A stretch of DNA of 64,000 bases from assembly GCF_044324875.1 (NCBI RefSeq), contig NZ_CP172185.1, one strand, 5' to 3'. This document shows, one piece after another, positions 15,219 through 51,496 of this stretch; position 1 is the first letter of the stretch, and each line of letters starts with the position of its first letter. The notes below the pieces were generated by a model. The model did no database searches. It worked only from the letters and a program-made list of their open reading frames with translations, and had not been told where the DNA came from. Source of the stretch: Escherichia coli. Its GTDB lineage: Bacteria > Pseudomonadota > Gammaproteobacteria > Enterobacterales > Enterobacteriaceae. The position numbers and the translations under genes are program-made.

Positions 15219-15356
15219 ATAATTAATAGCCGGACAATTTTTATTGTCCGGTAAAATTCATCGTAAGCGCTCCTTCTGTGCCGTCTTGTGGTGGTTGTCC
15301 TGTCTGGCAACAATCGCGTCCATCTATTGATGGACACGAACGATGTGGATTTGCCC

Positions 15357-16262
15357 CTATATATCCAGACATCTGTTATCACTTAACCCATTACAGGCCC
15401 GCTGCCGCAGATATTCCCGTGGCGAGCGATAACCCAGTGCACTATGCGGATGCCATTCGTTATAATGCTCGAACGCCTCTGCAAGGTTCTTTGCTGCCGT
15501 TAACCCGTCTGGTTTGGGCATGACACTGATGTAGTCACGCTTTATCGTTTTCACGAAGCTCTCTGCTATGCCGTTACTCTCCGGACTCCGCACCGCCGTG
15601 TTCTTCGGTTCAAGCCCCAACATCCGGGCAAACTGCCGTGTTTCATTAGCCCGGTAGCATGAACCATTATCCGTCAGCCACTCTACTGGAGACGCCGGAA
15701 GCTCGTTGCCGAAGCGGCGTTCCACCGCTCCCAGCATGACGTCCTGTACTGTTTCACTGTTGAAGCCGCCCGTAGTGACCGCCCAGTGCAGTGCCTCACG
15801 GTCACAGCAGTCCAGCGCGAACGTGACTCGCAGTTTTTCTCCGTTATCACAGCGGAACTCGAACCCGTCAGAGCACCATCGCTGATTACTTTCTTTCACA
15901 GCCACTCTGCCGGTATGTGCCCGTTTCGATGGCGGTACAGCGGTTTTTCGCTCAAGCAACAGCGCATTCTGGCGCATGATCCGGTAAATACGTTTGGCAT
16001 TGATCGCAGGCATACCATCAAGTTCTGTTTGTCTGCGAAGCAGCGCCCATATCCGACGATAACCATATGTGGGTAGCTCTCCGATAACATGGTGTATACG
16101 GCGAAGCACATCCGTATCATCCGTGTGACGGCTGCGGCGTCCGTCCTTCCAGTCATCGGCTCGTCTGAGAATTACGTGCAACTGCGCACGCGACACCCGG
16201 AGACAACGGCTGACGAAGCTTACTCCCCATCCCCGGGCAATAAGGGCGCGTGCGCTATCCAC
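15357..16262 (-). CDS. insD: IS2 InsD (OrfB transposase)
   Basis: 301 aa, [34 protein letters not shown]… with DDE core. Confidence 0.9.
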
Positions 16263-16630
16263 TTTTTTGCTCGCCCATATTCAACGGCTTCTTTAAGGAG
16301 TTCATTTTCCATCGTTTTTTTGCCGAGCAGACGCTGGAGTTCTTTAATCTGCTTCATGGCGGCAGCAAGTTCAGAGGCAGGAACGACCTGTTCTCCGGCA
16401 GCCACAGCAGTAAGACTTCCCTCCTGGTATTGCTTACGCCAGAGAAATAGCTGGCTGGCTGCCACACCATGTTGCCGGGCAACAAGGGAGACCGTCATTC
16501 CCGGTTCAAAACTCTGCTGAACAATAGCGATCTTTTCCTGTGTAGTACGCCGTCTGCGTTTCTCCGGTCCTAAGACATCAATCATCTGCTCTCCAATGAC
16601 TAGTCTAAAAACTAGTATTAAGACTATCAC
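16220..16630 (-). CDS. insC: IS2 InsC (OrfA)
   Basis: 136 aa, [56 protein letters not shown]…. Confidence 0.9.
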
Positions 16631-17482
16631 TTATTTAAGTGATATTGGTTGTCTGGAGATTCATGGGGCCAGTCTACTCCCGCATTAAAATATACTGTTC
16701 TTTCCGGATAATTACGTTAAAATAGACACCTGCGTGCATCTGTGTCAGACTCCGTTAGATACCAGCGTACATTGTAAACATGCCGGATGCACGCAATACA
16801 ATAATCGGTCTTTTCGGAGTTATAGTCACCAGGCTGGCATCCCGTAAATATGTATCAGGTAGCAATTCAGGAAGCGAACAAAAGCGCCTGGAGAAGGTTA
16901 TCTCTGATAATAATTTACATGAAATGTCTCCTTTATTCTTCGCGAATAAGGCCTTCAGTGTTCTCCCCTTTTCAGCAATTCTTACCGTAGTAATCACTCC
17001 TGCCTGTGTATAACACGAGAATTGCCAGAGTTTAACGTTTCGGTATCGTTATCCTGCATGATGTTGAACAGAACCGGGCGTGAATTCTGCGCCAGAATTT
17101 TCTTTCGAGGAACATTCCGGGTTATCTGTAGTACAGGAGGAGATTTTCTCCTATTTCAAATAAAATTCAATGACAGGTGAATATTTAAATATAAATGCAT
17201 CGCTTCAACAGAGAAATCGGAATTACGCCCGGAACCAGGTCTGAATGAATAATGGAGGAGGAAAAATAATATTATTGATGAAAATATCAAATCAAGTCCC
17301 CCTTCTCCTTCCCCAGCTTAAATATACTTACTTTTTCACTGGATAATATGTTATTGAATTACAAAGTTGATCCTGATATACATGATTTCCGGCTCTTGCA
17401 TCCAGTGATAACTTTATATACTCCTGCAAAGGCGAACTTCGTAAAAGTATACTTTTCTGTTGTAAGCATTGAGGTATCGAAT

Positions 17483-17707
17483 ATGAGTGAGAATACCGGA
17501 AAATCCCATGAAAATAAAATGGTTATTATTGACTGCGGGGAATATGATGAATACCTTCGTAACGCGTGGTTCCGAGGTTTTCGGGAAGGTTATGATATGG
17601 CGATGAAATTTGGATTAGGCTGCCAGCAATGTTATGAAACAGGTGAAAAAATAGCATGCGCAAGAGCTGAAGAATGCCGTAAAAAGATTAAGGTAATAAA
17701 ACACTGA
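17483..17707 (+). CDS. Small Cys-containing hypothetical protein (74 aa)
   Basis: ATG at 17483 preceded by GAGGT; MSENTGKSHENKMVIIDCGEYDEYLRNAWFRGFREGYDMAMKFGLGCQQCYETGEKIACARAEECRKKIKVIKH. The longer ORF-track start at 17348 lacks a ribosome-binding site. Confidence 0.4.
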   Translation: MSENTGKSHENKMVIIDCGEYDEYLRNAWFRGFREGYDMAMKFGLGCQQCYETGEKIACARAEECRKKIKVIKH

Positions 17708-17835
17708 AACGGGCTGTCTGATATTTCTGTGAGCTAAAAAGACACCGTAATACAGGTATCTCACAGTAACTGAAAGATATGCACATGCAGCCAGGGAAGA
17801 TTAAGGGTAAGGGAGGATATCCCTTACCTGATTGA

Positions 17836-18360
17836 TTATGGGATGATACCACAGGCAATTCTTGCACCACCGCCACCTAGAGGTTCAGGATGGTCATCAT
17901 GATTATCACCTCCTGCGTGGAGCATTAGCGAACGGCCATCGAGCTCCTTTAATTCAGATAGTCTTGGCGCAAGCACCGGGTAGGTTGCTTTTCCGTCATG
18001 AGTGACATAAAGCGCAGGGAGATCACCCAGGTGGCCATCAGGAGACCATGGACCGAGATGCTTCCCTGTTTTTTCCGGGTCAAAGTGACCACCTGCAGAT
18101 AAAGCAGCGACAGTTTTTCCATCTTTCAGGGCAGGAGCACAACTTGCGTTTTCATGTACATGAAAACCATGAATGCCGGCGGGTAAGGAGTGAAGATCAG
18201 GGGTGAACAGCAGCCCGTAGGGTGTCTTCTGGATGGTTATTTTACCAATATTTCGCTCTTTTCCGTCACTATCAACAAGATTCATTGTTACATCTTTGGT
18301 GGCTGCATATCCACAGGATGATGTAGCCAGAATCACAAAGGCAATAAGTTTACGTTTCAT
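17836..18360 (-). CDS. sodC: Periplasmic Cu/Zn superoxide dismutase (SodC paralogue)
   Basis: 174 aa with signal peptide; metal-ligand motifs …[10 protein letters not shown]… and …GGHFDPE…, …HLGDLPAL…, …[12 protein letters not shown]…. Confidence 0.85.
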
Positions 18361-18455
18361 AAACCCTCTGTTAACAGGTTAAAGATTTACTCAATAACTG
18401 TTGCGAAATAACAGTCAGCCAGATTTCAGGGGGATGGCTGTGCGCGAAATGAAGC

Positions 18456-50064: not shown

Positions 50065-50160
50065 AACCGATATTCCTTTTTGCAGATAAATGAAAACGCC
50101 AGCCCTGTTCAGGCTAGACTGGCCCCCTGAATCTCCAGACAACCAGTATCACTTAAATAA

Positions 50161-50571
50161 GTGATAGTCTTAATACTAGTTTTTAGACTAGTCATTGGAG
50201 AACAGATGATTGATGTCTTAGGGCCGGAGAAACGCAGACGGCGTACCACACAGGAAAAGATCGCAATTGTTCAGCAGAGCTTTGAACCGGGGATGACGGT
50301 CTCCCTCGTTGCCCGGCAACATGGTGTAGCAGCCAGCCAGTTATTTCTCTGGCGTAAGCAATACCAGGAAGGAAGTCTTACTGCTGTCGCCGCCGGAGAA
50401 CAGGTTGTTCCTGCCTCTGAACTTGCTGCCGCCATGAAGCAGATTAAAGAACTCCAGCGCCTGCTCGGCAAGAAAACGATGGAAAATGAACTCCTCAAAG
50501 AAGCCGTTGAATATGGACGGGCAAAAAAGTGGATAGCGCACGCGCCCTTATTGCCCGGGGATGGGGAGTAA
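50161..50571 (+). CDS. insC: IS2 InsC
   Basis: 136 aa, identical in length and nearly identical in sequence to copy 1. Confidence 0.9.
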
Positions 50572-51434
50572 GCTTAGTCAGCCGTTGTCTCCGGGTGTCG
50601 CGTGCGCAGTTGCACGTCATTCTCAGACGAACCGATGACTGGATGGATGGCCGCCGCAGTCGTCACACTGATGATACGGATGTGCTTCTCCGTATACACC
50701 ATGTTATCGGAGAGCTGCCAACGTATGGTTATCGTCGGGTATGGGCGCTGCTTCGCAGACAGGCAGAACTTGATGGTATGCCTGCGATCAATGCCAAACG
50801 TGTTTACCGGATCATGCGCCAGAATGCGCTGTTGCTTGAGCGAAAACCTGCTGTACCGCCATCGAAACGGGCACATACAGGCAGAGTGGCCGTGAAAGAA
50901 AGCAATCAGCGATGGTGCTCTGACGGGTTCGAGTTCTGCTGTGATAACGGAGAGAGACTGCGTGTCACGTTCGCGCTGGACTGCTGTGATCGTGAGGCAC
51001 TGCACTGGGCGGTCACTACCGGCGGCTTCAACAGTGAAACAGTACAGGACGTAATGCCAGGAGCGGTGGAACGCCGCTTCGGCAACGATCTTCCGTCGTC
51101 TCCAGTGGAGTGGCTGACGGATAATGGTTCATGCTACCGGGCTAATGAAACACGCCAGTTCGCCCGGATGTTGGGACTTGAACCGAAGAACACGGCGGTG
51201 CGGAGTCCGGAGAGTAACGGAATAGCAGAGAGCTTCGTGAAAACGATAAAGCGTGACTACATCAGTATCATGCCCAAACCAGACGGGTTAACGGCAGCAA
51301 AGAACCTTGCAGAGGCGTTCGAGCATTATAACGAATGGCATCCGCATAGTGCGCTGGGTTATCGCTCGCCACGGGAATATCTGCGGCAGCGGGCTTGTAA
51401 TGGGTTAAGTGATAACAGATGTCTGGAAATATAG
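50529..51434 (+). CDS. insD: IS2 InsD
   Basis: 301 aa DDE transposase. Confidence 0.9.
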
Positions 51435-51496
51435 GGGCAAATCCACAGGCTGGCGTCAGGTTAATGAATCGTGGTGAGTGAGATGATGAGTGAAAC

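Follow-up and report, generated by a model that had tools for sequence, protein, structure and literature searches.

An open reading frame (ORF) of 74 codons, situated between an IS2 copy and sodC in Escherichia coli, is almost certainly a genuine protein-coding gene under purifying selection, as judged from the comparison of three diverged lineages. In all three of them it accompanies a sodC gene of mobile DNA, and its product is tentatively proposed to be a cytoplasmic accessory factor of this sodC module, acting via the conserved tip of a predicted helical hairpin. This proposal falls just short of an even balance in our judgement. The window analysed here is the whole stretch of 64,000 nucleotides from contig NZ_CP172185.1 (assembly GCF_044324875.1), read on one strand from 5' to 3', and all positions refer to it. 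The reading frame and its ribosome-binding site (RBS) are the following:

17483..17707 (stop codon included), plus strand: 74-aa CDS for the small hydrophilic protein MSENTGKSHENKMVIIDCGEYDEYLRNAWFRGFREGYDMAMKFGLGCQQCYETGEKIACARAEECRKKIKVIKH, with ATG at 17483 and TGA at 17705-17707
17471..17474, plus strand: Shine-Dalgarno sequence GAGG, 8 nt 5' of the ATG, in a TTGAGGT context that also occurs in the Klebsiella copy

A preliminary description of this DNA had reported a 74-aa ORF with a plausible ribosome-binding site, and both were recovered at these positions; the peptide quoted there is found within the CDS product. The AT-rich surroundings and the absence of co-directional neighbours described at that time were likewise observed: the GC content is 0.39 in the ORF and 0.395 across 16676-17835, compared with 0.49 in the whole window, and both flanking genes, IS2 and sodC, are on the minus strand. 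The same CDS is called by PGAP and is deposited as hypothetical protein WP_024210520.1 in RefSeq and as A0A0D8W5S6 in UniProt, while the exact ORF sequence is present on at least 1000 public contigs.

An ATG-initiated ORF of at least 74 aa was obtained in 28% of dinucleotide shuffles of 16676-17835, and therefore length alone is no evidence for a gene. The whole open frame covers 141 codons from stop to stop and 119 codons from its first ATG; no more than about 2% of shuffles equalled it. In Klebsiella a 1-nt deletion disrupts the 45-codon extension that precedes the 74-aa frame, and because this extension is not conserved, the 74-aa start is the supported one. The extended 119-aa ORF predicted by many gene callers was rejected on the same deletion and on its lack of conservation in contig L008, which carries the third lineage.

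The copy of Klebsiella pneumoniae (P0004) shows 81% amino acid identity to the 74-aa protein and has retained the ATG, the position of the stop codon and the Shine-Dalgarno sequence. No indels separate the E. coli and Klebsiella sequences in the 225 nt of the ORF and each of the flanking non-coding stretches has one; nucleotide identity is 86% in the ORF and 77-79% in these flanking stretches. Calculation by NG86 gave a dN of 0.097 and a dS of 0.434 (omega 0.22) for the ORF, the dS matching that of sodC (0.448). After random placement of an equal number of substitutions, as few non-synonymous changes were seen in 0.3% of cases (p 0.003), and a stop codon was created in 81%. Of the five alternative frames, four had an omega of 0.49-1.18, and one on the opposite strand reached 0.29 but with two stop codons. 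The third lineage is represented by protein P0010 (75 aa, contig L008), with 54% amino acid identity and an intact frame. Here pN was 0.26 and pS 0.91, synonymous sites being saturated (Fisher p 1.5e-14), and DNA similarity between the window and L008 is limited to codons 20-62 of the ORF (17540-17667) and to sodC.

A chance opening of the frame, or a constraint acting on DNA or RNA as part of a sodC 3' or regulatory region, would be the alternative to a gene. This explanation can refer to the frequency of 74-aa ORFs in the shuffles, and to the segment 17596-17690, in which the identity of the E. coli and Klebsiella copies is about 96% and thereby exceeds that of sodC. It is opposed by the omega of 0.22, which is confined to the ORF frame apart from the opposite-strand frame that carries stop codons, and by Rfam, where no credible match for the ORF region was found. 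The third lineage keeps the protein despite saturated synonymous change and in a different placement relative to sodC. Taken together, the substitution patterns against the two relatives rule out both a chance ORF and a constraint at the DNA/RNA level. We regard the non-coding explanation as extremely improbable. The possibility of a spurious ORF, which the preliminary description had left standing, is thus rejected because frame, start, stop and Shine-Dalgarno sequence are conserved together with these substitution ratios; the check proposed there, namely conservation of the frame with a bias to synonymous changes, was run on the two diverged relatives and found the frame conserved in both.

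The family is very small. In the protein collections searched it consisted of three lineages in total (E. coli-type, Klebsiella and P0010), none with a family match, so that the earlier term "orphan" was apt. Word-indexed searches of 5.8 billion protein clusters returned only the E. coli-type and Klebsiella copies, and P0010 alone was added by a full profile scan, which covered about 15 billion proteins through 1.84 billion cluster representatives. Two other matches of the profile scan (P0011 and P0012) were repeat proteins aligned over short stretches and were discarded as spurious. No relative of the ORF was found in 100,044 GTDB representative genomes or in the viral contigs of IMG/VR, and a metagenome scan yielded nothing besides E. 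coli-type copies. By tblastn, phage records contained no relative, and plasmids contained only IS2-truncated copies of the ORF. Scans of all three lineages against Pfam, NCBIfam, PHROGs and PADLOC gave nothing above threshold. For the 74-aa protein no Pfam match was obtained at E up to 10; PADLOC assigned no anti-phage defence family, and the best PHROG match had an E-value of 0.19. The nearest Pfam candidate, DUF7574 (PF24459), was rejected: P0010 scored 15.1 bits (E 0.023) against a gathering threshold of 27, and the window and Klebsiella proteins did not match it. Judged by these sequence searches, the ORF appears to define an uncharacterised family that is absent from Pfam.

The 74-aa protein contains neither a signal peptide nor a hydrophobic segment, and a cytoplasmic location is predicted. 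AlphaFold2 (AF2), supplied with the alignment of the three lineages, placed helices at residues 18-42 and 47-73 with a four-residue turn between them. The pLDDT was 78.6 with three sequences, exceeding 90 over approximately residues 21-65, and 46 with the close pair only. According to this model, residues 1-17 are variable and predicted to be disordered, and the remainder is predicted to form a tight antiparallel two-helix hairpin; all amino acid variants within E. coli are located in residues 8-20. Invariant in the three lineages are E20-D22, R26, A28, W29, R31-Y37, M39, A40, F43-L45, C47-C50 and E52-K56, followed in the C-terminal part by A58, A60-A62, C65, K70 and H74. The most invariant stretch corresponds to the tip of the hairpin, F43-G-L-x-C47-Q-Q-C50-x-E-T-G-E-K56. 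In the model, a ladder of small residues on helix 1 (A28/G32/G36/A40) faces a second one on helix 2 (C47/C50/G54/A58/A62/C65). A sequence profile search of the PDB gave nothing at E up to 10, and a fold search returned generic hairpins only, with no specific structural match. Among known hairpins, the Rop/Rom proteins (63 aa, dimerising to four-helix bundles) are comparable in size, small-residue packing and carriage on mobile DNA, and share two long antiparallel helices with a tight turn, which for the ORF protein are predicted in a monomer model. They differ in showing no sequence similarity to it and no specific structural match. The targets of Rop are RNA kissing complexes, and there is no indication of such binding by the ORF protein.

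Five cysteines are present in the protein, at residues 18, 47, 50, 59 and 65. The preliminary description had pointed to a CxxC…C pattern as a possible metal-binding motif, and this can be upheld only in part. C47, C50 and C65 are invariant in the three lineages, while C59 is replaced by Tyr in P0010 and C18 by Gly or Tyr in the other lineages, the latter position being C/Y polymorphic within E. coli. In the AF2 model the conserved cysteines are situated on one continuous helix, with C65 15 residues (about 22 Å) away from C50, and therefore C47, C50 and C65 would not form one site in the monomer. Given this model and the variable C18 and C59, a single monomer is unlikely to contain a CxxC…C…C metal site. 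The more specific proposal of a classical small metal-binding protein, in which CxxC…C…C would jointly bind a single Zn or Fe ion in a knuckle like that of zinc fingers or rubredoxin, is consistent with the invariance of the three cysteines and of the C-terminal His74, and with the adjoining gene for a Cu,Zn enzyme. The substitutions at C59 and C18, the single CxxC pair and the spacing of C50 and C65 on an uninterrupted helix speak against it, as does the lack of any match to zinc-ribbon, TraR/DksA, HMA or rubredoxin models at E up to 10. C4 zinc ribbons, TraR/DksA proteins and rubredoxins are recognised by two CxxC motifs, or by CxxC with CxxH, and neither combination was found in the ORF protein. 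This proposal was considered highly unlikely.

A helical wheel places C47, C50 and C65 on the apolar Gly/Ala face and the non-conserved C59 on the polar face. The conserved cysteines may consequently be plain packing residues of the predicted helix-helix interface instead of reactive thiols. In the AF2 model helix 2 begins with C47 and has C50 in its first turn, at the junction of the loop and the helix N-cap, and the CxxC motifs of thiol-redox and Cu(I)/Zn proteins have the same local geometry. A two-thiol redox or Cu(I) site of C47 and C50 at the helix N-cap, or a site between subunits, is possible from the model; that the CxxC motif is chemically active at all seems rather doubtful to us.

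Two groups of cysteine-containing proteins were compared in this respect. The Cu(I) chaperones CopZ/Atx1 (HMA, PF00403) and thioredoxin-like CxxC proteins resemble the ORF protein in their length of about 70 aa, their cytoplasmic location and a C-x-x-C motif of which the first Cys ends a loop and the second stands in the first helical turn, as seen in AF2; for CopZ/Atx1 the adjacency of the ORF to a copper enzyme gene can be added. The ORF protein differs from CopZ/Atx1 in being predicted as all-alpha and not as a beta-alpha-beta-beta-alpha-beta ferredoxin-like fold. HMA domains carry an N-terminal MxCxxC, in contrast to the CxxC at residues 47-50 of the ORF protein, which gave no HMA HMM match. 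CHCH proteins of the twin Cx9C and twin Cx3C types (Cox17, small Tims, subunits of complex I and IV) are likewise helical hairpins containing cysteines. In those proteins, however, paired cysteines on both helices form inter-helix disulfides in an oxidising compartment, whereas the ORF protein is bacterial and predicted to be cytoplasmic, has only the variable C18 on helix 1 and lacks the paired pattern, with E-values above 2.

The region upstream of the ORF contains the following elements:

17354..17382, plus strand: candidate sigma-70 promoter TTGAAT-17 nt-TATACA (TATAAA in Klebsiella), proposed by eye
17434..17466, plus strand: block of 33 nt in which E. coli and Klebsiella differ at one position, directly 5' of the ORF RBS

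The candidate promoter lies within the block ATGTTATTGAATTACA, which is fully conserved in the alignment of E. coli and Klebsiella; in a promoter scan with a 9-of-12 threshold it scored below the limit and was not reported. A perfect 14-nt palindrome, AAAAGTATACTTTT, occupies 17443-17456 inside the second block, which could represent an operator or a leader element. Folding of the leader RNA (17385-17500) was no better than that of shuffles (z -0.85). Inspection by eye of the upstream regions of the ORF and sodC for Fur, Zur and LexA-like boxes gave none that was convincing. The 8-mer GTTATTGA that is common to both upstream regions was dismissed as being within chance expectation.

These elements bear on a function in nucleic acid binding, in which the protein would act as an RMF-like ribosome or RNA binder, or as a DNA-binding autoregulator on the upstream palindrome. 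The conservation of the palindrome just 5' of the RBS agrees with this, as do the invariant basic and aromatic residues of helix 1 (R26, W29, R31, F33, R34 and Y37), and the local motif R..W..G[FW]RE[GA] resembles helix 2 of RMF. RMF and Rmf-CrpP proteins are, in addition, small helix-linker-helix proteins. A relationship was nevertheless rejected: an hhalign comparison with what we take to be the RMF sequence, which serves as a lead only, gave 8% probability over 13 columns, and no match was found to PF04957 or to NCBIfam RMF/CrpP models, which would be expected to extend over both helices with the CPY linker and the W..GW motif. The AF2 model shows no HTH, RHH or other DNA-binding fold, and the palindrome is not recognisable upstream of the third-lineage ORF. 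Such a function is, in our estimation, quite unlikely.

The ORF and sodC together form a block that is shared by E. coli and Klebsiella and has the following organization:

15346..16677, minus strand: IS2 copy, left bound of the E. coli module (module start 16676)
17317..18424, without strand: two-gene block comprising the ORF with 165 nt upstream, the hairpin, and sodC with 64 nt upstream, 85.5% identical to a Klebsiella pneumoniae contig
17805..17829, without strand: GC-rich hairpin GGGTAAGGGA-GGATA-TCCCTTACCT between the convergent ORF and sodC
17836..18360, minus strand: sodC, periplasmic Cu,Zn superoxide dismutase of 174 aa, WP_000823671.1, with a Sod_Cu Pfam match

The ORF and sodC are convergent in both species, 128 bp apart, and have the hairpin in common. 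It is kept in Klebsiella except for one loop base, and looks like a terminator on both strands. The Klebsiella flanks are unrelated on both sides of the block, and its right edge (18424) is the end of homology both in Klebsiella and in the E. coli copies adjacent to dptFGH. Together, these sharp edges suggest a discrete mobile cassette; no terminal repeats were seen at them. The copies used for the comparison of edges were L003, L012, L013, L015 and L017. In E. coli and Klebsiella the cassette was found in at least four unrelated settings, namely an ABC transporter/phosphodiesterase cluster (as in the window), dptFGH phosphorothioation-restriction genes, IncF plasmids and, in Klebsiella, a FecCD-type transporter. 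The stretch 16942-17071 resembles the 3' ends of IS3-family transposase genes (69-79% identity to regions of L010 and L025), suggesting that IS debris makes up part of the 640 bp that separate IS2 from the conserved cassette; this IS3-like stretch may explain many plasmid matches of the region. Upstream of sodC an inverted repeat, ACTGTT-N7-AACAGT, was noticed at 18397-18415, 37-55 nt before the start codon. It is kept in Klebsiella except for its last base and could be a sodC operator; its interpretation as a LexA box was rejected, the CTGT..ACAG spacing being 9 nt and not the canonical 8.

Every known member of the family is located at 0.13-0.75 kb from a sodC gene of one mobile clade, with differing flanks and orientations. 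In the third lineage (contigs L008 and L009) sodC lies 752 bp upstream of the ORF homologue and is divergent from it, with an IS3 remnant between them, and katG is found 465 bp after the homologue. The gene order on L008 (1-6254) and L009, taken from Logan SRR33065492 and SRR33065487, is sodC, IS3 remnant, ORF homologue, katG and an 83-aa Cys-containing ORF, for which no Pfam match was obtained. The katG DNA of these contigs is about 75% identical to enterobacterial katG.

Neither the ORF nor a remnant of it is present near sodC genes of 83%, 82%, 76% and 68% identity. In a neighbour-joining (NJ) tree of SodC, for which an outgroup sequence that we take to be that of K-12 was used, the 83%, 82% and 76% genes without the ORF fall inside the clade spanned by ORF-linked sodC. 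The linkage looks ancestral to this clade because SodC of L008 branches outside the group of the window, Klebsiella and P0032-P0039. The simplest reading would be an old linkage that was repeatedly lost. sodC does not depend on the ORF, and in the collections searched the ORF was never seen without sodC. Since the E. coli-type and Klebsiella lineages inherit the cassette by descent, the linkage amounts effectively to two independent observations.

Among complete E. coli genomes, the region was detected in 125 of 5426 and is essentially full length in 104 of these carriers; it is truncated in about 17% of them. Many of the carriers listed are poultry isolates. In public copies the 225-nt ORF has been hit by IS elements at least four times independently, at about codon 21, about codon 44 (by IS2, in IncF plasmids from E. 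coli and E. albertii), about codon 50 and about codon 70 (by IS5). The interrupted or truncated copies considered were P0003, P0006, P0008, L005/L006, L017 and H81-H85. The AT-rich ORF seems to be a hot spot for IS elements. The proportion of truncated carriers and the number of insertions indicate a gene that can be dispensed with in the short term.

The main rival to a role in the sodC module is that of a real gene with an unrelated function, for example in modulating a host or mobile-element process, which shares the mobile segment as a passenger independently of sodC and oxidative stress and whose cysteines are core packing residues. The frequent IS insertions into the ORF and the existence of sodC relatives without it speak for such a passenger; the ORF furthermore has its own promoter region and never stands in an operon with sodC, its conserved cysteines lie on the Gly/Ala packing face, and there is no sequence tie to any redox or metal family. 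Against this, all three lineages have stayed within 0.75 kb of sodC despite complete turnover of the flanks and rearrangement of the two genes relative to each other, and in the third lineage the ORF stands between sodC and katG. Nor was it found without sodC in the 5.8 billion clusters, the profile scan of 1.84 billion representatives or the metagenome scan. We consider the passenger explanation less than probable, though more so than any of the other rivals. A functional tie of the ORF to sodC is evenly balanced in our assessment.

For the preferred reading, in which the protein assists the mobile sodC module of oxidative defence (including katG in one lineage) as an accessory factor, the following mode of action can be proposed. 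The protein would work through the invariant tip of the predicted hairpin, which could either operate as a switch, based on thiols or a metal, or provide the surface on which a partner protein docks. It would thereby tune how the periplasmic Cu,Zn superoxide dismutase (SOD) is expressed or supplied with metal. A further step would be to regard the three lineages as a new family of cytoplasmic CxxC hairpins dedicated to transferred Cu,Zn-SODs, linking Cu(I) or thiol sensing to SodC metallation via copper exporters, or to sodC expression. This is a speculative extension that we think improbable; if true, the position of the ORF in the third lineage, with sodC on one side and katG on the other, would point to a wider function in a portable kit for oxidative defence.

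In pathogenic Enterobacteriaceae, survival of the phagocyte oxidative burst is aided by additional sodC genes. The sodCI gene of Salmonella, located on the Gifsy-2 prophage, is such a horizontally acquired extra sodC. It resembles the present case as a second periplasmic Cu,Zn-SOD gene carried as small cargo on mobile DNA in pathogenic Enterobacteriaceae, and differs from it in that, in the searches made, no phage record encodes a relative of the ORF and a companion small gene is not part of the sodCI locus. To our knowledge, the expression and metal loading of a transferred periplasmic Cu,Zn-SOD in its new host are only partly understood. A cytoplasmic companion that travels only with such sodC genes would, if the proposed role is true, be a simple candidate for the missing link. 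If the ORF is a passenger, the annotation still gains a real gene that starts at the 74-aa and not at the 119-aa position and belongs to a tiny family missing from Pfam. The ORF was already known as a hypothetical protein in RefSeq and UniProt; the selection on its frame and the failure of the tetra-Cys idea come from the present work. In the literature searched, neither the sodC linkage nor the predicted hairpin fold was found described, and searches on the accession numbers, on DUF7574 and on selC/tkt1 islands gave no mention of the gene or of the sodC cassette.

Collinearity of the window with E. coli ECCNB12-2 (NZ_CP033635.1), where the region forms a selC-associated island, is limited to 3001-31835; no tRNA gene is present in the window. 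Downstream of the sodC/ABC-transporter cluster, this collinearity identifies a YebF-family pseudogene with an internal stop (24688-24987) and a 3.8-kb gene for an S6-family serine-protease autotransporter (27909-31733). Past 31835 the gene order differs: genes for PhoX and phosphoethanolamine transferase are found at 38799-46589, and IS2 occurs a second time at 50115-51447. Several copies of IS1414 are scattered across the island.
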